DNA of 64,000 nucleotides, taken from positions 574,514 to 638,513 of the forward strand of contig CP181398.1 of the NCBI GenBank assembly GCA_047946875.1, in the 5' to 3' direction. The DNA is from Candidatus Kerfeldbacteria bacterium. GTDB taxonomy: Bacteria; Patescibacteriota; Patescibacteriia; UBA10025; JAHIVO01. Position 1 is the first letter of the stretch. Every line of letters starts with the position of its first letter. Positions 544 to 50,107 of the stretch are shown piece after piece. The notes below the pieces were generated by a model. The model did no database searches. It had not been told where the DNA came from and saw only the letters and a program-made list of their open reading frames with translations. A program made the position numbers and the translations under genes.

Positions 544-3500
544 TTACTCCTTATTTTCAATGCACCATCTGTAGGCATTTTGAAAAGGCAATAACCATGG
601 ACTAGCATCAAAATCACTAAATTCTTCAGGCATCCAAGGCCACTGCCAAGGTAAAAATACTCTTTCTGGATGAGGCATCATAGCTAAATGACGACCATCT
701 GGAGAACATAATGCAGCTATTCCCATCGGACTACCGTTAGGATTGTCAGGATAAATCTCAGTAATATTGCTATCATTATCAATAAACCTAATCGGAGCAA
801 GTTTATTATCCAAAATATAATTGGTAATACTATCACTCTTACAATGATAACGACCTTCACCATGCGCTACCCAGACTCCAAGTTTTGAACCAGACATTCC
901 TTTTAACATAATCGAAGGACTATCTTCAATAATGATTGTAGAAAATCTTGATTCAAATCTCTCAGAAATATTTCTGATAAACCTAGGCTGGTTATCAAGA
1001 TCAATATTCTGATGTGGAATCCATCCAAGTAATGCCATTAACTGACATCCATTGCAGATACCGAACGAGAATGTATCGGGGCGTTTATAAAATCTATCAA
1101 ACTGATCCATGAGATGATCATTAAATTTTATTACACCAGCCCAACCTTTCCCGGCATCCATTACATCAGCAAAAGAAAAACCTCCAACAAATGCAATTCC
1201 CTGAAAAACATCAAGAGTTATCTTGTTGTTAAGCAGATCATGCATTGTGACATCCCAAACTTCAAAACCAGCCATAAAAAATGCAGAAGCCATTTCCTTA
1301 TCACCATTACTACCTCGCTCTCGCAAAATAGCAACTTTTGGTTTTTCATTTGACTCAATGATATATTGAGAAGTTTTCTCCGGAGTAAAGGTTACTGAAT
1401 ATGGTGGCGGAGCAATCCTAGTTAGATTGAGATCAAACTCAGATTGAACACAGGCAGGATTTGTTTGTAATTTATCCAACTCCATACTTGTTGTTTCCCA
1501 AATTGCTCTTAACTCTACCATTGGTTTACTCAGCACTGAGCCACCGTCATGGTTAATGTTGACTTGGCCACCTCGTTTACCAACATGGCCAATCAAGAGA
1601 TAAGGAATATCATACTCTCTCAATATTTTCACAACTTTATTATAATCAGAACACTCGATTAATATTCCAGCTTCTTCATTGAATAAAGTTTGAATTATAT
1701 TATTAGACAGCAGATTAACATCTACACCAACATTCCCAGCGAAAGCCATCTCAAGTAAAGAGACTATCAAACCACCATCACTCTTATCGTGTAATGAGAA
1801 TATTAGTTTTTTCTCAACTAACTCTTGTATTACATTAAATGAAAGCTTTAGTAATTCGACATCATCTATGTCAGGAGATTCATCACCTATCTGTTGGAAT
1901 ACTTGCGCTAAAGCAGATCCACCAAGCCTATCTTTGCCACCGGACAAATCAATAAATATAATTTCACTGCCAGGTTTCTTGAAATCTGGTGTGACTTTAC
2001 AAGTTATATCATCTACTGTGGCATAGCCAGTAATCACTAATTCAGGAGGAGCTTTGACAATATGAGTATTACCATCAGGACCTTTTGTTTTAGCTGCCAT
2101 AGATAGACTATCTTTACCGCCATCTATAGCTATACCTAGCTTGATCATGATATCACGAACGGCACAGGCTGCCTTATACAACCAAGCACCTTCACCAGGT
2201 TCTTTAGCAGCTAACATCCAATTACCAGAACATTTGATATCTTCTAACTGAGTTATCTTAGTTCCTGATATGTTTAATAACATCTCGGAAACTGACAAAC
2301 GAGCTGCTGCTTCCGGGGAGATCAAACCTTTGTTTGGTTGTTCTCCAATACTTGAAGCGATACCCGAGATATCAAAATGACTTTGTGCTACAACTGCGCA
2401 GTCAGCCAAAGTAATATGATTCGGACCAACACATTGTTGTTGGGCAATCAAACCAGTCACGCTTCTATCAACTTTTGTTGTTAAAAAGCGTTTTGATCCA
2501 ACCGAAACTAAACGCAGTACTAAATCTAATGCACTGGCTACCGTTAAATCTTGTGGTAGTTCCAATGGTTTTAAGGTTGGTAAGATTGTTTCAAGTTTGA
2601 AAGTCTTACGAGGCAATTTACCCAGCACTTTATCAAGTGGTAAATTCACTGGTGTGGTCCCATCATTCTTATCAAAAAGAATAAATAAACCATCTCCTGT
2701 CACCTGACCAATCAAAGCACATGGCGCATCTTCTCTATCACATATTTCCTTCACTTGATCAAAACGATCAGAACGAATTAAAAAAACTATCCTTTCTTGG
2801 CTTTCATTACAATGAATTTCATAATCAGATAAAGTTGCATCGCCTACTGGTATAGATCTCAAATCGATAACCGCACCAGCTGGATTAACAAGTTCGGGAA
2901 CAGCATTACAATCACCGCCCGCACCTAAATCAACCACTAACTCAACAGGATTATCATCACCTAGATTCACAAAAGTTTGAATGACTCTTGCAAGTCTATT
3001 TTCCATTTGAGCATTGCCGCGTTGGACAGAAGCAAAATCAAGCTCTGCTTCATTTTCACCAGAAATCATTGAGCTTGCAGCACCGCCACCAACACCAATA
3101 CGATAAGCTGGACCACCCACTTGGACGACCAACATATCTTTCTTTGGTTTACCCACTTTACTATGTGCATCATCATATTGTCCAATACCACCAGCCAGCA
3201 TAAGAGGCTTAAACCAACTGCGATACCCATCCGGCAAATCAATTCCAAAAGTTCGAGCATACCCATAAATTACAGGCACACCATAACAATTGCCATAGTC
3301 TGAAGCACCATTACTGGCTTGGATCATTATATCCAAAGGTGAAGCAAGATTTGGTGGATATTCCCAACCGTCGTTTTCCCAAGGCAAATCATATCCTAGA
3401 ATATGTAAATTACCAGTGCAGTAACCGGCGTTTGCAGCAATAACCAAACCACCAAGTCTCATTGCTAAGATATCTCTGAGCCAACCACCTATACCAGTTG

Positions 3501-4449
3501 CCGCACCTTGATAAGGTTCAACACCAGTAGGATGATTATGAGTTTCCACCGATAATATTGGATGGTAGGTTCTGATAACTTGAATAAAGTTAGAAACCAA
3601 TCCTGGCGTACTAGGTAAAATAGTTCTTACTATTTTACCATTGATTGCCGAACTGTCATCGCCAAATGCCACATTAGAATTGCCTGGATTAACCTTCCAA
3701 GGTTTTTTTATAATGTACATAAGACTATGAGGCATTTTCTTACCATCAATATAGAATCGACCAGTAAAAAAACCATGGCGCGAGTGTTCCGAATTAGAAT
3801 TACCCAGCTGACCCATTTCAACATTATTAGTATCTCTCTGAAGAAAACTTACAAATAAATCTAGATATATTTGTAAATCTTGCAAATCCATACTCAGTCC
3901 TAACTGCTTGTTGATAGCAGTCAAGGCAGCTTCGCCCTGACCCATAACTGGAACAATTTGAACCGGCTCTATAATAGCACCAGATTCAAAGTTTTCTAAT
4001 GGTTTAGAATATTCTGTCTCCGTCATTCGATCACAGTACTTAGATAAAAAATCACTTTGCTCATTTTGGTTTAATTCAACACTAAAACCAAAACGACGAG
4101 ATTTTTCCAGTCTCACAACTTTGTCTAAGCCACAAGAATGACAAATTGAAACAGCAGAAGAAGACCAAGCAGTTTCGAAATTAAGACGAGGCCCAATTTC
4201 TAAAACTGTTTTACAATCATCCAAATTACTTGTTTGACTAAAGTAATCCTCTTCAAAAGTTTCACTTAACAACCATTTCAATTTTTCTAGCTCTGTAAAA
4301 GTTAACTTTGAACCGTTTTTAATTTCAACATAAAAACACCACTCAGTTATTAACTTTAAATCACGAATAAAATCAATTCTAAAATTATTTATAATCTTAG
4401 AGATCATTGATTCGCTTAAAGCGGGTTTCCGATAAAATCGAATTATCAT
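544..4449 (-). CDS. purL: phosphoribosylformylglycinamidine synthase, single-chain large form (FGAM synthase)
   Basis: 1301 aa ORF with N-terminal PurL/AIR-synthase-related domains and a C-terminal class I glutamine amidotransferase (FGICNGCQLMALLGWIP with the catalytic Cys). GGAG sits 8 nt upstream of the ATG. Confidence 0.95.
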   Translation of the reverse strand: MIIRFYRKPALSESMISKIINNFRIDFIRDLKLITEWCFYVEIKNGSKLTFTELEKLKWLLSETFEEDYFSQTSNLDDCKTVLEIGPRLNFETAWSSSAVSICHSCGLDKVVRLEKSRRFGFSVELNQNEQSDFLSKYCDRMTETEYSKPLENFESGAIIEPVQIVPVMGQGEAALTAINKQLGLSMDLQDLQIYLDLFVSFLQRDTNNVEMGQLGNSNSEHSRHGFFTGRFYIDGKKMPHSLMYIIKKPWKVNPGNSNVAFGDDSSAINGKIVRTILPSTPGLVSNFIQVIRTYHPILSVETHNHPTGVEPYQGAATGIGGWLRDILAMRLGGLVIAANAGYCTGNLHILGYDLPWENDGWEYPPNLASPLDIMIQASNGASDYGNCYGVPVIYGYARTFGIDLPDGYRSWFKPLMLAGGIGQYDDAHSKVGKPKKDMLVVQVGGPAYRIGVGGGAASSMISGENEAELDFASVQRGNAQMENRLARVIQTFVNLGDDNPVELVVDLGAGGDCNAVPELVNPAGAVIDLRSIPVGDATLSDYEIHCNESQERIVFLIRSDRFDQVKEICDREDAPCALIGQVTGDGLFILFDKNDGTTPVNLPLDKVLGKLPRKTFKLETILPTLKPLELPQDLTVASALDLVLRLVSVGSKRFLTTKVDRSVTGLIAQQQCVGPNHITLADCAVVAQSHFDISGIASSIGEQPNKGLISPEAAARLSVSEMLLNISGTKITQLEDIKCSGNWMLAAKEPGEGAWLYKAACAVRDIMIKLGIAIDGGKDSLSMAAKTKGPDGNTHIVKAPPELVITGYATVDDITCKVTPDFKKPGSEIIFIDLSGGKDRLGGSALAQVFQQIGDESPDIDDVELLKLSFNVIQELVEKKLIFSLHDKSDGGLIVSLLEMAFAGNVGVDVNLLSNNIIQTLFNEEAGILIECSDYNKVVKILREYDIPYLLIGHVGKRGGQVNINHDGGSVLSKPMVELRAIWETTSMELDKLQTNPACVQSEFDLNLTRIAPPPYSVTFTPEKTSQYIIESNEKPKVAILRERGSNGDKEMASAFFMAGFEVWDVTMHDLLNNKITLDVFQGIAFVGGFSFADVMDAGKGWAGVIKFNDHLMDQFDRFYKRPDTFSFGICNGCQLMALLGWIPHQNIDLDNQPRFIRNISERFESRFSTIIIEDSPSIMLKGMSGSKLGVWVAHGEGRYHCKSDSITNYILDNKLAPIRFIDNDSNITEIYPDNPNGSPMGIAALCSPDGRHLAMMPHPERVFLPWQWPWMPEEFSDFDASPWLLPFQNAYRWCIENKE

Positions 4450-4652
4450 GACATTTCTCCATATATTTAGTTTTCAAATTACAATTTTTGTATTTTATTT
4501 AGTCGTTAAAATTACCATTTATAATGATAAATAGTCAAATTCGATAAGATGTATATTCTATGAATTATATTGTGTCCACAATACCAAGATGTTATATCAA
4601 AAAACACCTCCTATTTATTGAAAGGTGTTTTTGGTTATTTCTTTATACCCTT

Positions 4653-5831
4653 TTAATCAATAGGGTTATTTCCGCTATCAATCTCAATTTTATCATCATA
4701 ACCGTCACCGTCTGTATCAGACTTATTATCGTTAGTTTGATAAACCAATTCTAAATAGTATGGGAGCCCATCATTATCATTATCTAAATCAATATCATCT
4801 TTTGCTACACTTTCCATATTTATAATATCAATTTCTCCTTTTTCTAATCCATCTTGGAAAACTAATTCTCTTATCATAAAAAAATAATACATTCTAAAAA
4901 ACGGAAACCTTACAATAATTGCGTCATCTTTTGTAAATCCTGGGGGGTAATCTATTTTCTCTGGACCAAAAACCATTCCAAAATAATAATACTGTCCATC
5001 ATCAATTACTGGAGTTAATACAAAGGGATTATTTTCCATCTCTAATATTCTATTTTTTATATCTTCGTTAATATCCAAATCCTTTATTAACTCCTCGTTA
5101 GAATTAAGCAAAAAATCACCATCGGCAAATTGAAATTGCTCGTCAGGTCGCACGTTAAAATCTATACGCATAAAATCAAGGTCATCTTGAGAAGAATAAT
5201 TAATTCGATTTTGAAATGCACTATATACTTCCTTAACTCTATCACCTACTAAAGAATGAAAAGCTGGCTGAAATTGTTCATTAGTTGATCCCCTTAATTC
5301 TTCAAGTCTATTGCCCCACGCTAGTAACTTAACATAATCATCCCAATATATTTCACTAATCCCAACATTTTCTAGTACTAATTTTTTATTATCACCAGTG
5401 TACTTTCCATTTATTAAATTTATATACTCTGTAATGGGTTTAAGTTCAATCCCCATTCTTATAATTGCTTCCTCAACTACATATCTATTTATAAATAAAT
5501 TTAAAGCAATAATTTCTTTTGGAGTTTTATTTAAATCTACTGGCATAATAAACTGCTGTTCCATACCTATAATAAATCCAGCCAGAGAATAGTTTGTTTC
5601 CATTTCACCTAACATTTCAACAATTCTTTCAAATTCAGTCTTATTAATATTATTATTAAAAACGGTTGCTATAGTATTGGCATCAACACTATTAATATTT
5701 ATATTTTCTATAACGGAATTATTGACATCAGATATATCTGACACTTCATTATTATTGACAGATAAATAATAAAATACGCCTCCTCCTATCAATACAACAA
5801 TGATAATAATTAAAATTAATATTTTATTCAT
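4653..5831 (-). CDS. hypothetical exported or membrane-anchored protein with a C-terminal Ca-binding-like DxDxDG acidic tail
   Basis: 392 aa with an N-terminal hydrophobic helix (ILILIIIIVVLIGGGVFYYL) and a C-terminus ...DTDGDGYDDKIEIDSGNNPID. AAAGGAG lies upstream of the ATG. I recognise no family. Confidence 0.55.
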   Translation of the reverse strand: MNKILILIIIIVVLIGGGVFYYLSVNNNEVSDISDVNNSVIENININSVDANTIATVFNNNINKTEFERIVEMLGEMETNYSLAGFIIGMEQQFIMPVDLNKTPKEIIALNLFINRYVVEEAIIRMGIELKPITEYINLINGKYTGDNKKLVLENVGISEIYWDDYVKLLAWGNRLEELRGSTNEQFQPAFHSLVGDRVKEVYSAFQNRINYSSQDDLDFMRIDFNVRPDEQFQFADGDFLLNSNEELIKDLDINEDIKNRILEMENNPFVLTPVIDDGQYYYFGMVFGPEKIDYPPGFTKDDAIIVRFPFFRMYYFFMIRELVFQDGLEKGEIDIINMESVAKDDIDLDNDNDGLPYYLELVYQTNDNKSDTDGDGYDDKIEIDSGNNPID

Positions 5832-10568: not shown

Positions 10569-11739
10569 TTTTATTATATTTCCAAAGTAAATAAGCACCA
10601 GTAAAAAAAGCTGGAATAGTTATCAACATAGCAATTCTTGGGCTATCTGTTAAGACAACCAAGGTGCCAAATAAAACAGGTCCTATCCCAGCTGACGACC
10701 TTGAAGCTAAGGCATAAATTCCAAAATCAAGCCCAGCATGTTTCGCTTCAGAAACCTGAGTATAATAAGCTCGCAATAGAGATTGGGTAGAACCGATAAC
10801 TAAGGCACCAAGCACACCCACAACAACTAGCTGTATTTTAGTTTGAACGACAAAAATACCTAATACTATAATTATCCAAATAGCTACTGAAACTAAAAGT
10901 GGTTTAATTACACCAAATTTTTTTCCCATTCTCCCAAATATCCAAGTGGCTGGAAAAGCAATAAACTGAATACCGATCAAAAAAATACCTAATTCTTTAA
11001 TACTTACACCTAACGTCTCTCTGGCATAAAGACTACCAAAAAAAGTAATAATATATATTCCCCCACTAATAAACCAGACTACAATTAATAGTGTTAAAAC
11101 GTTATTTATTTTTGCTTCTTGCCAAGCTTCTTTCAGTGAGGTAATGGCTTGTTCACTTACAATTTGTGAGGGCAAAAGTTTTAATGACACAATAGAAAAA
11201 ATAACAAAAAATCCTGCCGTTACATATATTCCAACTACAGACGGATCCGTCGATCCACCCTGTGCTACGATCACAAGTGCTAAACATACTAATCCACCTA
11301 AATATCCAAAACCCCAAGCAAAAGATGAAACAATACTGGCATTTTCTTTGGGAGCAATCTGAGGCAGGAATGAATCATAAATAATCTGCGATAAAACAAA
11401 AAAGATATTAGTAAACAATAATACAATAAAATAAACTTGCACCGAAATCTCAGTTAACAAACCAAGTAAAATAACTCCGACAACTGCCAAAGCTATAAAA
11501 TAAGAAAAGATCTTCTTTCTATTGCCAATATCACTCCTATGACCAAAAAAAGGTCCGAGTAATATAGCAATAGTAACACTTAAAGAAATTCCTAATCCCC
11601 ACCAAAAATCAGAACTCCTCGCCCCCTCCATGATTGTTTCCTTAAAAAACAATGGAAACAAAAAAGAAAGCATAATCAGCACATAGCCAGTATTAGCAAA
11701 ATCGTAAAACGCAAAACCCCAAAAATGTTTTTTATTCAT
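10552..11739 (-). CDS. MFS transporter
   Basis: 395 aa with about 12 predicted TM helices and the GHRSDIGNRKK loop after TM2, which is typical of the major facilitator superfamily. Confidence 0.8.
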   Translation of the reverse strand: MNKKHFWGFAFYDFANTGYVLIMLSFLFPLFFKETIMEGARSSDFWWGLGISLSVTIAILLGPFFGHRSDIGNRKKIFSYFIALAVVGVILLGLLTEISVQVYFIVLLFTNIFFVLSQIIYDSFLPQIAPKENASIVSSFAWGFGYLGGLVCLALVIVAQGGSTDPSVVGIYVTAGFFVIFSIVSLKLLPSQIVSEQAITSLKEAWQEAKINNVLTLLIVVWFISGGIYIITFFGSLYARETLGVSIKELGIFLIGIQFIAFPATWIFGRMGKKFGVIKPLLVSVAIWIIIVLGIFVVQTKIQLVVVGVLGALVIGSTQSLLRAYYTQVSEAKHAGLDFGIYALASRSSAGIGPVLFGTLVVLTDSPRIAMLITIPAFFTGAYLLWKYNKKNSPS

Positions 11740-14871: not shown

Positions 14872-14904
14872 AAAATCATACTAATTTATTTTTATTATAA
14901 TTCA

Positions 14905-14978
14905 AGTATACCAAAAAACACCTCAACCTGCGAGGTGAGCTCTGGCAGGGGCTCGTACCTGCCTGCCGGCAGGCAGGG
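14905..14978 (-). terminator. terminator + extended -10 promoter cassette: two hairpins, T6, then TGGTATACT
   Basis: Minus strand CCCTGCCTGCCGGCAGGCAGGG ... CACCTCgcaggttGAGGTG-TTTTTT-GGTATACT. It terminates the 14997..15734 gene and provides an extended -10 (TGnTATAcT) about 34 nt before the 14425..14871 start. Confidence 0.55.
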
Positions 14979-15734: not shown

Positions 15735-15822
15735 AATTTTATAATTAAATAATTAACTTATTTAAGTATACCAAAAAATACCTAAATCATCGAGGTGACT
15801 TTTGATAACTTTGTAATCATAG

Positions 15823-17623: not shown

Positions 17624-17653
17624 ATTTATTAATTAATAATTAATTCATAATTA

Positions 17654-17728
17654 AGTATAACAAAAATCACCTCAACCTACGAGGTGGGCTCTGGCGGGTA
17701 TTAATAAATGACGTTAAAACTTATATTA
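17654..17728 (-). terminator. terminator + promoter cassette, family member
   Basis: Minus strand ...AACGTCATTTATTAATACCCGCCAGAGCCCACCTCgtaggttGAGGTG-ATTTTTG-TTATACT, upstream of the peroxiredoxin gene. Confidence 0.5.
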
Positions 17729-21390: not shown

Positions 21391-21426
21391 AGTTTTTTAA
21401 TATTATTAATTTTTAATATGTTATAC

Positions 21427-21510
21427 AGTATACCAAAAAATACCTCAACCTGCGAGGTGGGTTCTGGCGGGTATTAGTGAACGACGTTCGAACTAAGATT
21501 CTTAATACGC
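21427..21510 (-). terminator. terminator + promoter cassette, family member
   Basis: Minus strand ...CGTCGTTCACTAATACCCGCCAGAACCCACCTCgcaggttGAGGTA-TTTTTTGGTATACT, between the FG-GAP gene and the GPH transporter gene. Confidence 0.5.
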
Positions 21511-23979
21511 AGGAAAAATATTTACACCTCCACGAAATCCTGTATGATGTGTAAAAAATTGGGATTTAACAGTACCCCACATATCAAAAATTCTAACTTG
21601 TGGACCCATTCCAGCTCCAGGAGCAGTCACGATTTCATTTACCCCATCAGCATCAACATCAGCAATAAAAGAAGAAAAATTTCCTCGTAGATGATTACTA
21701 TAAGCAAAGAATTGTGACAATACTTCCCCTCTTGTATTAAATACCCTGACATGTGGACCTGCATTAGATTCAGGCGTAGCAATAATTTCATTTACCCCAT
21801 CAGCATTTACATCACCAATAGAGATATTTAAACCTCCACGGAAAGTCTCAGCATAAGCGAAAAATCTTCCTATAAGCGTACCGTCACCTTTAAACATTGC
21901 TACTTGAGGGCCTAAACCTGACTTTGGAGTTATTATAATATCAGAAACGTCATCAGCATTTACATCACCAACTGATAAATTATATCCTCCACGAATAGTT
22001 GGAGCATATGCCCAAAACTGAGAAACCAGCGTTCCATCTTTTTCAAAAACTCTCACCTGTGGTCCAGCGCTAGATTCTGGCATGGTGATGATTTCAAACA
22101 TTCCATCATTGTCTACATCAGCTAATGCAATACTAACACCTCCACGGAATGTCTCAGCATATGCATAAAACTGAGACTCTAAATTACCATAGCTATCTAA
22201 AATTCTTATATGAGGCGCTGCACCTTGTTTAGGTACTGCAACTATCTCAACTCTCCCATCGTCGTCTATATCTCCAGCCGCCATATTAATACCGGCTCTC
22301 ATATTTGAGGTATAAAACATAAACTCTGCTATTTGATAACCCGCTGAGTTAAATAATCTTACTAATGGCTCGGCACCCACTCCTGGAGCAATTATAAATT
22401 CAGATATACCATCAGTACCCAAATCAATAGAAGTAGCCGTCATACCAAATCTTAAAGAAGAATCATATGCAAAAAAATTAGTAAGTGTTTCTCCCAAATA
22501 ATTTTTAATTATTACTTGTGGGCCACCAGCACTTATTGGAGTAGCTAATATATTTACAGGAGTTGCAACTTCTATTGGCTTTATTCTTTGAGTAAAAATA
22601 TCATGATTGTATCCAGGATTAGTATAATGATTCCTTTCATCCTCCCATACTACTATAATACCCCTATTTCCGTCATTTGCTACGGAATATCTATACCGAT
22701 TGCCGTCACCTGTTGACACTAAATACCCTTCGTTACCCCATAAAAGTCTGCCGTTTACATCAACTTTTTGCATATACAAATCGGACCACATTTGTGGTGT
22801 ATCGGTTGAAGCGTATGTTGTGAAAAAAACATTTCCCCTCCCATCCGCAAGTAGCTCGGGCGCATAATGAGAAAGAGATATGTCAATAATTCCTATTCCG
22901 TCACTTCCCCATTTGAGATTTCCTTCTTGATCAATCCTCTGACCATACATCTTAGTAATTGTGTCATTCCAGCTCACCCAACCGACTACCAGACCACCAA
23001 CACCATCCGAAATTATCATTTCATGCATATTACTGACCATATCTGAAATTAATACTCCATCATTTTCCCATTGCATATCTCCATCAAGATTAATTTTTTG
23101 CACACGTAAATCTCCATAATTACCTATTCCTTCCTTGAATAAAACATAAATATTCGACCCACTTATCACTACGTTTTGATTGCCATACCAAAATTTGACA
23201 GATGATGCAACGACGACATCTGAATTCCAGATACGTTCTCCATCACTTGTAATTCTCTGGCCATAAATTACATTATCATCCTGCCAAAAAACTACCGATC
23301 CTCCATCTTCTGTTAAAGCAAGACTAATTTTGCTAATCTCTAATCCTGAAAAATCGTAAGTTGTTTCTGAAATCGCCTTACCTTCAGTGCCCCACAGTAA
23401 AGTTCCAGCAGTATTTATCCTATTTGCATAAACTACATTATTTTTAATCCAGACAATTATTGCGCCACCATTGCTATCTGAAATGACTTGCACTCCGCCC
23501 TCATTTGTCTGATCATGAGACACCTGCACGCCATTATTTGTCCACTGCACCTCACCACTTACATTAATTCGCTGAGTATATATATCAGTGTTATATTCCT
23601 CATCTCGATTATCCTGCCATACAACAATGGCACCATGCTGGGAATCGCTAACGACGTGGGCAGCTCCGCTTCCACCGCTCTGCGCTACAATCGCTTTTAC
23701 CTGCCCGCTCCATTGAGCAACTCCATCACTATCAATCCGTTTTGCATAAATACCGGAAGCAGATCCTTGGTCAGACATCTTATAAAAAAATAATCCTCCC
23801 CCATACCCATCACCAACCACTTTCGGAGTCGGACCATTACTATCTGATAATACAACAAATTCACCATTCTCAGTCCATTTTACTTCATCATTTTCCATGG
23901 ATGCATATACTTGAGCAGGTATTAAAATAAACATTCCTGTAACCAACAAGGTAATTAATACTTTTTTCATAGTTTTCAA
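21502..23979 (-). CDS. large secreted repeat protein with an N-terminal 8x repeat and a C-terminal 7x FG-GAP-like beta-propeller
   Basis: 825 aa with a signal peptide. The N-terminal half carries about 8 repeats of the type D-[IL]-Y-x-Q-R-I-x-x-x-G-x-x-x-W. The C-terminal half carries about 7 repeats of the type FFAY...RGG.N..IGDV[DN]ADGVxEII..P..GAGP[HQ]VR[IV]F, which is FG-GAP-like with DxDxDG loops. Confidence 0.7.
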   Translation of the reverse strand: MKTMKKVLITLLVTGMFILIPAQVYASMENDEVKWTENGEFVVLSDSNGPTPKVVGDGYGGGLFFYKMSDQGSASGIYAKRIDSDGVAQWSGQVKAIVAQSGGSGAAHVVSDSQHGAIVVWQDNRDEEYNTDIYTQRINVSGEVQWTNNGVQVSHDQTNEGGVQVISDSNGGAIIVWIKNNVVYANRINTAGTLLWGTEGKAISETTYDFSGLEISKISLALTEDGGSVVFWQDDNVIYGQRITSDGERIWNSDVVVASSVKFWYGNQNVVISGSNIYVLFKEGIGNYGDLRVQKINLDGDMQWENDGVLISDMVSNMHEMIISDGVGGLVVGWVSWNDTITKMYGQRIDQEGNLKWGSDGIGIIDISLSHYAPELLADGRGNVFFTTYASTDTPQMWSDLYMQKVDVNGRLLWGNEGYLVSTGDGNRYRYSVANDGNRGIIVVWEDERNHYTNPGYNHDIFTQRIKPIEVATPVNILATPISAGGPQVIIKNYLGETLTNFFAYDSSLRFGMTATSIDLGTDGISEFIIAPGVGAEPLVRLFNSAGYQIAEFMFYTSNMRAGINMAAGDIDDDGRVEIVAVPKQGAAPHIRILDSYGNLESQFYAYAETFRGGVSIALADVDNDGMFEIITMPESSAGPQVRVFEKDGTLVSQFWAYAPTIRGGYNLSVGDVNADDVSDIIITPKSGLGPQVAMFKGDGTLIGRFFAYAETFRGGLNISIGDVNADGVNEIIATPESNAGPHVRVFNTRGEVLSQFFAYSNHLRGNFSSFIADVDADGVNEIVTAPGAGMGPQVRIFDMWGTVKSQFFTHHTGFRGGVNIFPAY

Positions 23980-24002
23980 ATTTAATAATTATAATGATTT
24001 TA

Positions 24003-24039
24003 GTATACCAAAAAACACCTCATTCAGCGAGGCGCCTTA
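24003..24039 (-). terminator. terminator + promoter cassette directly after tRNA-Trp, with compensatory stem changes
   Basis: Minus strand CGCCTCgctgaatGAGGTG-TTTTTTGGTATACT. The stem sequence differs from the other copies but its pairing is maintained. Confidence 0.5.
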
Positions 24040-24114
24040 TGGCGGGAGCACTAGGACTCGAACCTAGAATAAGGGTTTTGGAGACCCTTGTGATAGCCAT
24101 TTCACTATGCTCCC
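24040..24114 (-). tRNA. tRNA-Trp (anticodon CCA), CCA end encoded
   Basis: Read by eye on the minus strand: GGGAGCATAGTGAAATGGCTATCACAAGGGTCTCCAAAACCCTTATTCTAGGTTCGAGTCCTAGTGCTCCCGCCA. It has a 7-bp acceptor stem, a TTCGAGT T-loop and anticodon loop CTCCAAA. Confidence 0.85.
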
Positions 24115-33149: not shown

Positions 33150-33248
33150 AGCATACTCCCTTATGTTCAATTTGTCAAGACCTAAGGCAAGACTATTAAA
33201 ATGGCTATTTTTGAGTAAAAAAATAAGGCACAGTATTGCTACTATGCC
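33150..33248 (-). terminator. terminator + promoter module, copy 1: GNRA-loop hairpin plus U-run, then TTGACA - 17 nt - TATGCT
   Basis: Minus strand: GGCATAGTAGCAATACTGTGCC-TTATTTTTTT, then TTGACA (plus 33173-33178), a 17-nt spacer and TATGCT (plus 33150-33155). About 92% identical to the copy at 35272-35370. Confidence 0.55.
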
Positions 33249-33267
33249 TTAATATGTAATATATATA

Positions 33268-35271: not shown

Positions 35272-35370
35272 ATATTAACATATTATTTAGTATTTGTCAA
35301 GACCTAGGACAAGGCCATTAAAATAGCTATTTTTGAGTAAAAAAATAAAGCACAGTATTGCTACTATGCT
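35272..35370 (-). terminator. terminator + promoter module, copy 2, upstream of hflK-hflC
   Basis: Hairpin agcacagtattgctactatgct plus a U-run, then TTGACA (plus 35295-35300), a 17-nt spacer and TAATAT (plus 35272-35277). Confidence 0.55.
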
Positions 35371-35411
35371 TTAATATGTATGATAGACAGCCTATTTTAG
35401 ATTAAAATATT

Positions 35412-46088: not shown

Positions 46089-46313
46089 GACAAATAATCC
46101 GGATAATCGTAAGCTATAAAAGCCTTGTCGTGATTGAAACGTTTACCAAACGTTTTGGCAAATAATGCCAGTTAAAAATAACCCAAGCGATAGGTCAATT
46201 TAAATAAAGAGTTTTCGCATTTATTGTGAAAGAATATGGGTGGAACCGCCCGAAATTTATCAGGGTCCCAAAGTAATAATTACTTTGGGTATTTTTAATT
46301 TAACAGATAATAT
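46089..46313 (+). promoter_or_regulatory. thrS leader: promoter, about 200-nt leader with a T-box-like GGGTGGAACCGCC, and terminator hairpin
   Basis: TTGACA at 46089-46094. GGGTGGAACCGCC at 46238-46250 compares to the T-box consensus GGGTGGNACCGCG. The hairpin CCCAAAGTA-ataat-TACTTTGGG plus TATTTTT at 46267-46296 sits 17 nt before the thrS ATG. Confidence 0.35.
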
Positions 46314-48032
46314 ATGAACAATAATATTGAAAAAATAAGACATTCTCTCTCACATCTAATGGCCATGGCCGTACTTGAAATTTTTCCTCAAGCCAAACTT
46401 GCAATTGGCCCAGTTATTGACGATGGTTTTTACTATGATTTTGACATCCCTCGCACTTTCACTCCACAAGATTTGCAAAAAATTGAACAAAGGATGAGAA
46501 AGTTGATCAAACAAAATATTAAGTTTGAAAAAATTAAAGTAACATCTAAAAAAGCTAAAGAACTTTCCAAAGATCAAATATATAAGTTAGAATTAATTGA
46601 TGAACTAATAAAAGAAAACAGTCCCATAACATACTATCAATCAAATAAATTTCTTGATCTTTGTAGTGGACCTCACGTTGAATCAACAAAAGAAATTAAT
46701 AAAGAAGCATTTAAATTAACTAAAAGTGCTGGTGCTTATTGGCGTGGTGATGAAAAAAATAAAATGCTCCAAAGAATTTATGGAGTTGCTTTTGATAATA
46801 AAAAAGAATTAGATAATTATTTAGCATTACAAAAAGAAATAAAAAAACGTGATCATCGAAAACTTGGTAAAGAGTTAGATTTATTTTCATTTCATGATGT
46901 AGCGCCTGGAGCTCCATTTTGGCATCCAAATGGAATGATTATCATAAAAGAGTTAGAAACATTATGGAGAAATATTCATGATAAAAATGGATATCAAGAA
47001 ACTTCGACTCCTATCATGAATAAAAGAGAACTATGGGAAAAATCAGGTCATTGGGAACATTATTCAGAAGATATGTTTAGACTAAAGGTTAATGAGCAAG
47101 AATTCGCTTTAAAACCAATGAACTGTCCTAATTCAACTTATATATATAATTCGCATCTTAGAAGTTACAAAGATTTACCAATACGTCTTTCAGAGATTGG
47201 ACGTTTGCATAGGAATGAACTAACTGGTGCGCTAGGCGGTTTATTTAGAGTTAGACAAATCACTATGGATGATGCACATATCTTTTGTCGACCAGATCAA
47301 ATAGAAAAAGAAATAACTGGAGTCATAAAATTAATTAAACAATTTTACAAAATTTTTAATTTCAAACCTGAGATGGTTTTATCAACCATGCCAAAAAATC
47401 ATCTTGGTGACAAAAAAACTTGGAATTTTGCAGAAGATGCATTAACTCAAGCTTTGAAAAAAAATAAGATTGATTATAAAATCAACCCTGGAGATGGAGC
47501 TTTCTATGGTCCAAAAATTGATATTGTAATTAATGATAATCTTAGTAGAGAATGGCAAATGGCCACTATCCAGCTAGACTTTAACATCCCTCAAAGATTT
47601 AATCTCACTTATACAGATAATAAAGGGAAAAAACAAACTCCAGTAATAATCCATCGCGCAATATTTGGTTCGTTTGAAAGATTTATGGGTATATTAATTG
47701 AGCATTATGCTGGTAACTTCCCTGTTTGGCTTTCCCCTTCTCAAATCACAATCTTAACAGTTGCTAAGAGTCATAAAAAATTTGCCAGTAAACTTAATGA
47801 CAAATTTAAAGAACAAGGATTTAGATCAATTCTTGATGATAATGATGATACTTTAGGATATAAAATTCGAAATGCCGAAAAACAAAAAATACCATACATT
47901 TTGGTAATTGGTGATAAGGAAATGAAAAGTAAAAACTTACATATACGACAGCATGGTTCAAAAAAAATACTTGAAATAACTACTGATAAATTTATAGCAA
48001 GGATAACCAAAGAAATTGCTGACAAAATGTAA
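46314..48032 (+). CDS. thrS: threonyl-tRNA synthetase (lacks the N-terminal TGS domain)
   Basis: 572 aa with RDHRKLGKELDLFSFHDVAPGAPFWHPNG and class II aaRS motifs, but no N1/TGS domain. Confidence 0.95.
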   Translation: MNNNIEKIRHSLSHLMAMAVLEIFPQAKLAIGPVIDDGFYYDFDIPRTFTPQDLQKIEQRMRKLIKQNIKFEKIKVTSKKAKELSKDQIYKLELIDELIKENSPITYYQSNKFLDLCSGPHVESTKEINKEAFKLTKSAGAYWRGDEKNKMLQRIYGVAFDNKKELDNYLALQKEIKKRDHRKLGKELDLFSFHDVAPGAPFWHPNGMIIIKELETLWRNIHDKNGYQETSTPIMNKRELWEKSGHWEHYSEDMFRLKVNEQEFALKPMNCPNSTYIYNSHLRSYKDLPIRLSEIGRLHRNELTGALGGLFRVRQITMDDAHIFCRPDQIEKEITGVIKLIKQFYKIFNFKPEMVLSTMPKNHLGDKKTWNFAEDALTQALKKNKIDYKINPGDGAFYGPKIDIVINDNLSREWQMATIQLDFNIPQRFNLTYTDNKGKKQTPVIIHRAIFGSFERFMGILIEHYAGNFPVWLSPSQITILTVAKSHKKFASKLNDKFKEQGFRSILDDNDDTLGYKIRNAEKQKIPYILVIGDKEMKSKNLHIRQHGSKKILEITTDKFIARITKEIADKM

Positions 48033-48048
48033 TAAAATAATATTTAAA

Positions 48049-48082
48049 CAGGTGTAATTTATTAAATTGTACCTGTTTTTAT
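48049..48082 (+). terminator. intrinsic terminator of thrS
   Basis: ACAGGTgtaatttattaaattgtACCTGT followed by TTTTT. Confidence 0.6.
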
Positions 48083-48141
48083 AAATATATAAAAAAAGAA
48101 GGACTAAATCGTTAGAAGTAGTCCTTATAAATTTCCACCGC

Positions 48142-48382
48142 GGTGGGAACAGAGAGCTGTAGCGTAAGACCGCTACGAGAATGGGGCAACAGATGCTGAT
48201 TGTGGATACAAGATGATGTCAGTATCAACATGAAGTAGCAAGTGCCCTGCCCGGCTATGGTCGACATACATTGTCGCCGTCGCTAAATTAATAGCGTTAT
48301 GGTGCCGGATTGTATAGTAATGTACGATATTACGTACTGGTGTAGGTGCTTAGTTGAAGAACCAAGCTCTCTGTTCCTCACC
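48142..48382. other. 241-bp GC-rich structured intergenic element bounded by 17-18-bp inverted repeats (GGTGGGAACAGAGAGCT ... AGCTCTCTGTTCCTCACC): candidate ncRNA or MITE-like insertion
   Basis: Its GC content is far above that of the surrounding intergenic DNA. The terminal inverted repeats are perfect for 13 bp, which I counted by eye. Internal hairpins include CCACCGCGGTGG, GTAGCG-taagac-CGCTAC and GTACGatattACGTAC. All six frames have stop codons. Confidence 0.35.
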
Positions 48383-48500
48383 AAGTTACCTCCAATAAAT
48401 AATAGTACATATTAGCATACCTATTATTATTGTCAAGGGGTATTTTGTGGATATTAAAAAACACCCATATTTTACAATGTCTTTATATAATAATTAATTT

Positions 48501-48650
48501 CTAACTCATCATTAATGCAATAAATATCCCAGCTGCAATAGAACCTAAAATAGCTACCGTTAACACAACTTTTACTCCAAGACCAACTTTTTCCTCAGTC
48601 TCAACTGCAACAATCTTATTTTTATCATTGTCTAAATCTTCAAAAGCCAT
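48501..48650 (-). CDS. small tail-anchored membrane peptide (49 aa), hypothetical
   Basis: MAFEDLDNDKNKIVAVETEEKVGLGVKVVLTVAILGSIAAGIFIALMMS. It is preceded on the minus strand by TGATATACT (extended -10-like). It is absent from the track because it is under 60 aa. Confidence 0.35.
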   Translation of the reverse strand: MAFEDLDNDKNKIVAVETEEKVGLGVKVVLTVAILGSIAAGIFIALMMS

Positions 48651-48736
48651 ATTATTTATTCAACTGATTATGTAATAAGTATATCATATCAATCCCCTTG
48701 ATTGCAAAGCAATAATAAACTACAATACACACTACT

Positions 48737-50107
48737 ATGAAATATTATATCTTAGTTATTGGTTGTCAGATGAACTATTCTGATGCCGAGAGAATATCAC
48801 AAACACTAAATCAATACGATGGTCAGCAGGTAAATAAAGAAAAAGACGCTGATGTAATTTTTGTTGTGTCTTGTTCTGTAAGACAAAAAGCGATGGATAA
48901 AATATATGGTCGTATCAAAAAATGGCAAGCTAAAAGAAAAGATCATAACGTAAAAATCATATTAACTGGATGCGTTTTACCGGCTGACAGGAAAAAACTC
49001 AAAGAAAACTTTGATATTTTTATTGAAATTAAAGATTTAAATAAACTTCCTACTTTATTAAAACTATCTCGTAGTATTAATAAAAACTCCTTAACAAATG
49101 CAGACTACCTAGCATTTAAACCCAACTATAGTTCAAAATTTCAAGCATATATCCCAATCATGACAGGATGTAATAACTACTGTACTTTTTGTGCTGTCCC
49201 CTACACCAGAGGTCAAGAAGCCTCAAGACCTTCATCTGAAATTATTAAGGAGATAGAATTGTTATTAAAAAAAGGTTATAAAGAGATTACTCTACTAGGT
49301 CAAAATGTTAATGCGTACCTTGATCCAGATATGAAGCATGCAAAAGAAATTGTAAAATCACGTTCCAAACAATATTGGGAATTCAATTATGACCAACCAA
49401 TACAAAAAAGAATGGCTAGTACTAACGTAGCTAAAGATTTTGCTACACTTTTAAAAAAAATTAATAATCTTCCTGGAGATTTTTGGATACGTTTTCTCTC
49501 TTCAAACCCTCAAGATATTTCTAATGAGTTAATCAAAGTACTAGCGGAATGTAAAAAAATAGCTCCTTACTTTCATTTTGCGCTTCAATCAGGAGATGAC
49601 GAAATATTAAGAAAAATGAATAGACGCCATACTTCTAATGACTATACTCAACTTGTAAAAAAAATACGGAAAGCTAAGCCGGGTATCGCTATCTCTACAG
49701 ATATAATTGTAGGTTTTTCTGGTGAAACAAAAAAGCAATTTACAAACACCGTCAAAATTATGAAAAAAATTAAATTTGATATGGCCTATCTTGCAGAATA
49801 TTCAACCCGTCCAGGCACTACCGCTGAAAAATTTTTTAAGGACAATATATCTAATAAAGAAAAAAGATTACGAAAAGATAAATTAAACGATATATTAGAA
49901 GATAGTGCAAAAAATATTAATAAAAAAATTATTGGTGAGACTGTCCCCGTCTTAGTTGAAAAATACAATACCAAGAAAAAATTAAATATTGGCAAAACCA
50001 ATACTTATAAAACAATATATTTTACAGGAGAAAATTTGATCGGAAATTTTATAAACGTACAAGTAACCAAAGCAGATGCCTGGGGTCTACATGGCAAGTT
50101 AAAATAA
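48737..50107 (+). CDS. miaB: MiaB-family tRNA methylthiotransferase (radical SAM)
   Basis: 456 aa with an MTTase N-domain (YILVIGCQMNYSDAE), the radical-SAM motif CNNYCTFCAVPYTRG and a TRAM-like C-terminus. Confidence 0.85.
   Translation: MKYYILVIGCQMNYSDAERISQTLNQYDGQQVNKEKDADVIFVVSCSVRQKAMDKIYGRIKKWQAKRKDHNVKIILTGCVLPADRKKLKENFDIFIEIKDLNKLPTLLKLSRSINKNSLTNADYLAFKPNYSSKFQAYIPIMTGCNNYCTFCAVPYTRGQEASRPSSEIIKEIELLLKKGYKEITLLGQNVNAYLDPDMKHAKEIVKSRSKQYWEFNYDQPIQKRMASTNVAKDFATLLKKINNLPGDFWIRFLSSNPQDISNELIKVLAECKKIAPYFHFALQSGDDEILRKMNRRHTSNDYTQLVKKIRKAKPGIAISTDIIVGFSGETKKQFTNTVKIMKKIKFDMAYLAEYSTRPGTTAEKFFKDNISNKEKRLRKDKLNDILEDSAKNINKKIIGETVPVLVEKYNTKKKLNIGKTNTYKTIYFTGENLIGNFINVQVTKADAWGLHGKLK

Follow-up and report, generated by a model that had tools for sequence, protein, structure and literature searches.

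Our analysis supports a single-copy, self-contained non-coding RNA (ncRNA) gene, encoded on the minus strand and without a match among known RNA families, as the identity of the GC-enriched element between thrS and miaB in the window (the whole stretch of 64,000 nt that was analysed). Taking both parts together, we consider it probable that a free-standing gene for a stable structured ncRNA has the element as its core and that this gene is confined to a family-level clade of Patescibacteria (CPR). Transcript, ends and processing alike are predicted. The original prediction offered two readings, a structured ncRNA and a MITE: the first has held up, whereas the second conflicts with the single copy in 64 kb and the lack of a target-site duplication. 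It had left the strand, which we find to be minus, unassigned, and it had also overlooked a promoter, a terminator and a membrane-protein ORF on the minus strand.

The segment spans 48142–48382 (241 nt) and is bounded by a 17/18-nt inverted repeat. Its arms, GGTGGGAACAGAGAGCT (48142–48158) and AGCTCTCTGTTCCTCACC (48365–48382), are reverse-complementary save for one extra base, which becomes a bulged A in the minus-strand RNA. The arms are exact inverted copies over at most 13 nt, compared to a maximum of 11 nt and a typical value of 7 nt in 300 shuffles of 48100–48400. GC content is 0.44–0.47 in the element vs 0.23–0.33 in the flanks, and the 241-nt core reaches 0.47 vs 0.33 in the whole window. 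A 12-nt palindrome, CCACCGCGGTGG, lies at 48136–48147 and is retained only in the nearest relative, L162. The element is preceded by the intrinsic terminator of thrS (48047–48081, plus strand), which is read from the sequence and falls outside the RNA. The predicted full transcript folds at −103.9 kcal/mol (z = −7.3 vs shuffles), and the core fold has z = −8.7 on the minus strand and −7.4 on the plus strand; the closing helix is 16 bp long, or ~21 bp with an extension. Most of what the original prediction had described is recovered here: the coordinates and reverse-complementary termini (apart from the one bulged base), the palindrome, the differing composition, the position just after the thrS terminator, and a long closing helix with hairpins far stabler than in shuffled sequences.

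The element sits within a minus-strand transcription unit of ~318 nt, a length predicted from the positions of its promoter and terminator. The unit reads, in order, ATATCCACA, 9 nt, TTGACA, 16 nt, TGcTAATAT, a leader, the closing helix with its multi-hairpin core, and a terminator; having its own promoter and terminator and lying between genes, it has the layout of a free-standing ncRNA gene. The DnaA-box-like upstream element ATATCCACA (48446–48454) matches TTATCCACA at 8/9 positions and ends 9 nt before the −35. The sigma-70-type promoter (48409–48436; TTGACA, 16 nt, TAATAT) scores 10/12 plus the TG of an extended −10 (TGcTAATAT). It is the best promoter-like site within 47900–48800 and belongs to just two TTGACA/TAATAT+TG sites in the 64 kb. 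From the position of the −10, transcription is predicted to start at ~48402, yielding an unstructured, AU-rich 5′ leader (48383–48402). Leaders are 20–26 nt long in the window and 24–36 nt in orthologues, where they were counted from an anchor at or within a few bases of the −10, and their sequence is unconserved.

The leader is followed by the 5′ arm of the closing helix (48366–48382; RNA GGUGAGGAACAGAGAGC), whose cognate duplex has a predicted energy of −33.3 kcal/mol. The GC-enriched body (48158–48365), fast-evolving in sequence, adopts ~5 hairpins including a three-way junction in its MFE fold, and the 3′ arm (48142–48157; RNA GCUCUCUGUUCCCACC) is assigned from sequence and arm pairing. 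A short trailer (48127–48141) combines with the helix base into the palindrome CCACCGCGGUGG (48136–48147), which could form an alternative small hairpin. The intrinsic terminator (48091–48126; AAGGACUAC...GUAGUCCUU, then C and U7) folds as a hairpin and stands back-to-back with that of thrS. All of these features lie on the minus strand, as does the 49-aa tail-anchored membrane-protein ORF (48501–48650) that is a conserved neighbour upstream of the RNA promoter, between the element and miaB.

The unit recurs next to the 3′ end of thrS in 10 related loci (L001, L162–L168, L170 and L171), all with ThrS proteins 68–85% identical to that of the window. ThrS-anchored scans of genome and metagenome contigs yielded one of them, the close relative L001, and otherwise distant taxa; the others were located through a protein database (ThrS) and contig look-ups. 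The usual order is thrS, the RNA on the opposite strand, the 49-aa membrane-protein ORF and miaB, and a hairpin with a T-run (a U-run in the RNA) closes the unit at the same place in 11/11 loci. When the nine loci with the same promoter architecture are aligned on the −35, they have in common a T-run, a TTATCCACA-like 9-mer, TTGACA, a spacing of 16–17 nt and TGnTAATAT. Cores measure 220–314 nt and are 3–19 GC points above their loci.

Core folds have z-scores of −1.7 to −8.7 vs dinucleotide shuffles and are more negative on the minus strand in 10/10 loci; those of L001 and L170 exceed shuffles modestly. The closing helix is found in all clear orthologues. Its base reads GGUGRG.../...CYCACC or GGGGAG.../...CUCCCC, and it often includes an asymmetric internal loop and an upper helix of 5–7 bp. 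Arm sequences vary by locus, each pairing with its own partner: pair 3 changes from U-A to G-C between subgroups, and cognate arms pair at a mean of −26.9 kcal/mol vs −16.4 (sd 4.2) for non-cognate arms. Interiors can be aligned in just two close pairs, window/L162 (68%) and L167/L168 (81%). Between subgroups, MAFFT, blastn and nhmmer gave no alignable interior, and k-mer motif discovery gave no common 7–9-mer beyond shuffles, the T-run of the terminator excepted.

Within the close pairs, the body is kept to different degrees. The RNAalifold consensus of L167/L168, a structure derived from those two sequences, leaves 19/19 varying pairs paired, 17 of them via G-U; if the fold comes from one sequence only, the RNA strand keeps changed pairs 13 against 10, and the opposite strand gives counts of 8/10 and 5/19. 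The body structure shared by the window and L162 is weakly kept (changed pairs 16 against 13; reverse test 10 against 19), which is uncommon among RNAs of defined tertiary fold. Because helix pairing and foldedness are kept while the interior is unalignable, it appears from these alignments that the terminal helix and general foldedness are under selection and that individual body hairpins turn over. As a gene for a structured RNA would, the orthologues retain structure through sequence change, seen in the covariation of the closing helix and in the z-scores and partly in the body, with no conserved ORF.

The thrS–miaB spacer comparison that had been proposed as a check places the unit in 10 relatives and finds it cleanly missing in two. 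These two, L169 (ThrS 73%) and L172 (ThrS 63%), have only a 57–78-nt terminator spacer between thrS and the small ORF; they lack the whole unit, promoter and terminator included, and still encode the membrane-protein ORF. In a neighbour-joining tree of ThrS, L169 falls between RNA-bearing lineages and L172 is basal. The placement of L169 suggests loss, and given its absence from both genomes, the gene must be dispensable or relocated in them.

The spacer is also a hot spot for the gain and loss of small genes. L164 has an additional 100-aa ORF there (4663–4965, minus strand), and L171 has a pentapeptide-repeat-like ORF (4270–4683, minus strand) with miaB displaced. In L165, a 176-aa ORFan with a transmembrane segment (3111–3641, minus strand) is nested inside the closing helix of the RNA. 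It belongs to no Pfam family and has one homologue among 5.8 billion proteins, so it offers no functional clue; since it occupies the body, the body seems to tolerate replacement.

We compared the element with known RNA families. At gathering thresholds, Rfam returned four tRNAs and nothing else in the whole window. Lax searches used windows of 421–801 nt at three loci and nine whole loci; at E ≤ 10 they gave only noise (snoRNAs, lncRNA fragments, terminator-like sRNAs) at the element, in the nine homologue loci and in small L167/L164 windows. ARAGORN found no tmRNA in the window and placed the four tRNAs elsewhere in it. The Rfam check named in the original prediction accordingly finds no family at the element at either threshold, and the absence of RNase P, tmRNA and SRP signatures that it had remarked on agrees with both programs.

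Several specific identities were set aside on these and other grounds. RNase P RNA (RF00010/RF00011; CR-I GGAAAGUCC-like, CR-V ACAGAA..GGCUUA-like) has no match at E ≤ 10 and no k-mer common to the orthologues; SRP RNA (RF00169/RF01854; helix 8 with GNAR tetraloop and AGCA/GGAA loops) has no Rfam match and no conserved motif; and a tmRNA, with tRNA-like acceptor, T-arm and tag frame, is matched by neither ARAGORN nor Rfam. The rod with a large central bubble expected of 6S RNA is not seen in any orthologue, all of whose MFE folds are multi-branched, and RF00013 gives no match. A group I intron does not fit a unit that stands alone between its own promoter and terminator, with no RF00028 match and flanks that form no tRNA. 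tRNA genes interrupted by a group I intron have been reported in Patescibacteria (PMC13011429), but the continuous 16-bp closing helix and the missing D and T arms do not fit an intron-split tRNA. As for a riboswitch or T-box-type leader, the unit has the convergent 3′ end of thrS beyond its terminator and no regulated gene downstream on the same strand. A type I toxin mRNA (hok-like) was dropped for want of a conserved small hydrophobic ORF. The thrS gene itself is preceded by a diverged T-box leader (46094–46273, plus strand; 33.9 bits vs a gathering score of 93, E 3.9e-6), which carries the canonical AAUAUGGGUGGAACCGC motif and is missed at Rfam thresholds; such leaders also occur at L162 1989–2199, L164 2262–2455 and L171 2259–2462.

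The DnaA-box-like site is placed strictly. It starts exactly 18 nt before the −35, in direct orientation, in 9/10 family loci compared; L166, L167 and L170 have a perfect box, the six others depart from it by one mismatch (ATATCCACA in the window among them), and L163 has an inverted, weaker copy. A TTATCCACA-like 9-mer at a conserved position relative to the promoter is what the sequence of a DnaA-regulon promoter would show. The combination TCCACA-N8-11-TTGACA occurs once in the window vs 0.01 expected, and among the first 170 loci it is found in five family loci, the window's own contig (L161) and the unrelated L035. The window as a whole has a chance density of DnaA boxes (32 vs 25.5 expected). 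An origin of replication (oriC) was dropped, as the window has neither a GC-skew switch nor a DnaA-box cluster. A second DnaA-box-like 9-mer, GTATCCACA (48201–48209, minus strand), lies inside the RNA gene and is unconserved in the orthologues.

A similar promoter arrangement turned up in viruses. Scanning viral contigs (IMG/VR) for TATCCACA-N9-TTGACA gave 120 stretches, 18 of which have a well-spaced −10 vs ~1–2 expected by a rough estimate. All 18 extend to the full TTATCCACA, and the viral module reads TTATCCACA-9 nt-TTGACA-17 nt-(−10). Loci that bear it are L177, L188, L189, L193, L194, L214, L215, L230, L258, L267, L273–L275, L282, L284, L287 and L290; the L189 contig has three tandem boxes. 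Some viral leaders hold long purine-rich/pyrimidine-rich hairpins, such as GGTGAGGGGA...TCCTCTCACC in L214. The genes behind the module start without SD motifs, as in the window, and several SD-less ATG starts in the viral contigs follow a recurring AAGGTCG motif.

How do other explanations fare against a gene for a stable structured ncRNA? We give next to no credence to a MITE or another non-autonomous mobile element with terminal inverted repeats. Repeats of 17–18 nt, a composition unlike the flanks and absence from the same site in two relatives are all features such an element would have, but the repeats lack a flanking target-site duplication (the flanks, ..CCGC / AAGT.., are not direct repeats), and the further copies by which the original prediction would have recognised a MITE are not found, the element being single-copy in the 64-kb window. 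Blastn found no match to it in phage or plasmid collections. Orthologous copies are syntenic and strongly diverged, not near-identical; the promoter and terminator, conserved together with the repeats, are not enclosed by them; and the empty sites of L169 and L172 lack the entire gene with its promoter, beyond the repeat-bounded segment. It is very unlikely, too, that the transcript is an mRNA or dual-function RNA, either a hok-like fold-back type I toxin transcript or the remnant of a decayed small gene. Just as the original prediction saw no open frame, the ORFs overlapping the element are short (32–51 aa) and none is conserved among the loci of relatives. A closing helix that joins 5′ and 3′ ends, with a GGAGG-like 5′ arm, does resemble fold-back inhibition, the helix of L165 encloses a real ORF that encodes a transmembrane segment, and the leader in the window contains GGAGGT. 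That motif is where it had been described, at the right edge of the element on the minus strand (48390–48395), but its proposed role as a ribosome-binding site does not stand: the ORF after it has 33 aa in the window vs 11 aa in L162, and because SD-like motifs precede few genes of this lineage (15/48 long ORFs of the window), it is weak evidence for translation. None of the peptides is hydrophobic, 1-nt indels are scattered between L167 and L168, and the L165 ORFan has a single homologue; the GC excess speaks against a pseudogene in decay.

A highly diverged housekeeping RNA seems unlikely, with a 6S/Ms1-like RNA that binds RNA polymerase the least excluded form and RNase P RNA, SRP RNA and tmRNA also considered. 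What speaks for it is a strong promoter of the stable-RNA type, a precursor-like leader and paired 5′ and 3′ ends, and ends of the form 5′-GGGG.../...CCCCA-3′ resemble those of the E. coli 4.5S RNA precursor. Universal RNAs retain an invariant core over much larger distances, whereas the orthologues here, at 75–85% ThrS identity, cannot be aligned by blastn or nhmmer and have no 7–9-mer in common across subgroups beyond shuffles. The lack of any invariant motif at that identity is incompatible with RNase P RNA, SRP RNA and tmRNA. CPR RNase P RNAs are diverged and fall below Rfam thresholds, which could make a missed one plausible, yet they are recovered by RF00010 at low scores (PMC8172020); unlike them, the element gives no match even at ~12 bits. 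Nor is there a match at E ≤ 10 to RF00010, RF00011, RF00169, RF01854, RF00013, RF00023 or RF00028, an ARAGORN tmRNA, or a rod with a central bubble among the multi-branched MFE folds, and L169 and L172 lack the gene. A little less likely again is an RNA that stems from a phage or responds to one (a decoy, an immunity RNA or an early-region remnant), captured at a variable spot by thrS. We keep this reading in play because the module and the leader hairpins recur in viral contigs: TTATCCACA-9 nt-TTGACA is found in IMG/VR, with a well-spaced −10 in 18/120 stretches, and some leaders there have the long purine-rich/pyrimidine-rich hairpins. The gain and loss of small genes in the spacer and the presence/absence polymorphism of the RNA would also suit it. 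Against this, nothing in the 120 viral stretches or the phage collection resembles the element in sequence, its surroundings contain neither an integrase nor another phage gene, and its position is stably syntenic across the clade. A role at the DNA level, as a DnaA-titrating or replication-linked site or as a cruciform with incidental transcription, is highly improbable. The strictly positioned 9-mer, the second GTATCCACA inside the gene and the stable folds on both strands would fit it; however, each locus has one conserved box only, box density is at chance, and the window has no GC-skew switch. Conserved −35 and −10 hexamers, a conserved terminator and a better minus-strand fold in 10/10 loci point instead to an RNA product.

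If the element is a gene for a stable structured ncRNA, its transcription could be gated by DnaA or another protein that reads TTATCCACA, judging by one 9-mer. The terminal helix may protect the ends of the RNA and could be bound by a partner protein, and a precursor might be trimmed there, either by an RNase III-type cut of the ~20-bp helix or by RNase P-type cleavage as in the 4.5S RNA precursor; the clade encodes an RNase III gene. The mature RNA of 220–310 nt would then act in trans as a protein-binding or sequestering RNA, with a body selected for stability and bulk and not for sequence. It is tempting to speculate further that this is a DnaA-gated, rapidly evolving decoy or sequestering RNA whose terminal helix captures RNase III, another dsRNA-binding factor or a phage protein, and whose box module is shared with phages, although we regard this version as a long shot. 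In it, occupancy of the box at ~−50 by the replication initiator would switch on an abundant RNase-resistant RNA, and phages of these bacteria would use the same box-promoter module, so that host and phage compete for the control input. The promoter module shared with viruses does hint at a regulatory input common to host and phage.

The nearest analogues, likened by architecture with no family match, appear to be Y RNAs, 6S/Ms1, CsrB-type sponges and the 4.5S precursor. In Y RNAs and YrlA, which are bound by Ro60/Rsr, the ends are paired in a long stem whose base is a conserved, bulged protein-binding platform; Y RNAs have ~100–130 nt and are usually encoded beside rsr, and YrlA carries a tRNA-like module. 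The element RNA may be likened to them in its paired-end stem, its fast-evolving remainder and its character as a small stable RNA; unlike them, it has no Ro-like gene near it and no T-arm was seen. With 6S and the mycobacterial Ms1 (~300 nt) it would share abundance, stability, a strong promoter, a closing stem formed from the ends and low sequence conservation, but it lacks the rod with a central open-promoter-like bubble, has no RF00013 match at E ≤ 10, and its orthologues diverge much faster. CsrB/RsmZ are comparable in their length of several hundred nt, variable hairpin number and fast sequence turnover, and in having a strong promoter, an activator site at a fixed distance upstream and an intrinsic terminator. 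In contrast to these sponges, the loops of the element RNA are AU-rich with no repeated motif such as GGA, and it has a long terminal helix, none being known for CsrB. The E. coli 4.5S precursor and the RNase III hairpins of T7 resemble it in a leader of ~20–30 nt, then a helix of G-rich 5′ and C-rich 3′ ends with lower and upper parts split by an asymmetric internal loop; it differs from the 4.5S precursor in having no SRP helix-8 motif, and processing here is our supposition. hok-type mRNAs likewise close a highly structured transcript of 250–400 nt by long-range 5′–3′ pairing, but the element has neither a conserved toxin ORF nor an antisense RNA gene.

CPR bacteria have small genomes and, as far as is known, few regulators; to our knowledge, very few of their ncRNAs have been described beyond rRNA, tRNA, RNase P RNA, SRP RNA and tmRNA. 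The locus offers a clean case, open to testing, of a stable RNA gene particular to its lineage, with a near-consensus promoter and a strictly placed DnaA-box-like site. If the link to DnaA is true, replication status would be tied to an RNA-based function in a reduced genome. Otherwise this is an ordinary orphan sRNA locus whose main practical value is for annotation, as it is neither a MITE nor a missed housekeeping RNA.

Some further features of the window concern its promoters and repeats. In several ORFs, TGGTATACT or TGGTACAAT ends ~7 nt before the ATG (e.g. at 11739, 7265 and 57339, minus strand), a placement that suggests leaderless mRNAs. A conserved intergenic module is present in five copies (14885–14952, 15745–15812, 17634–17701, 21407–21474 and 23982–24049); on the minus strand it consists of a hairpin, CACCUC-N7-GAGGUG, a U-run and TGGTATACT, and it looks like a terminator fused to the −10 of the next gene. 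A promoter/terminator region of 103 nt is duplicated at 87% identity (33161–33263 and 35283–35385) before two different minus-strand genes, and the copy at 35300 has TTGACA-17 nt-TGtTAATAT and no DnaA box. Finally, an 825-aa minus-strand ORF (21502–23979) contains four tandem copies at 21586–22170, with a period of 153 nt and 126 nt aligned at 66–71% identity.
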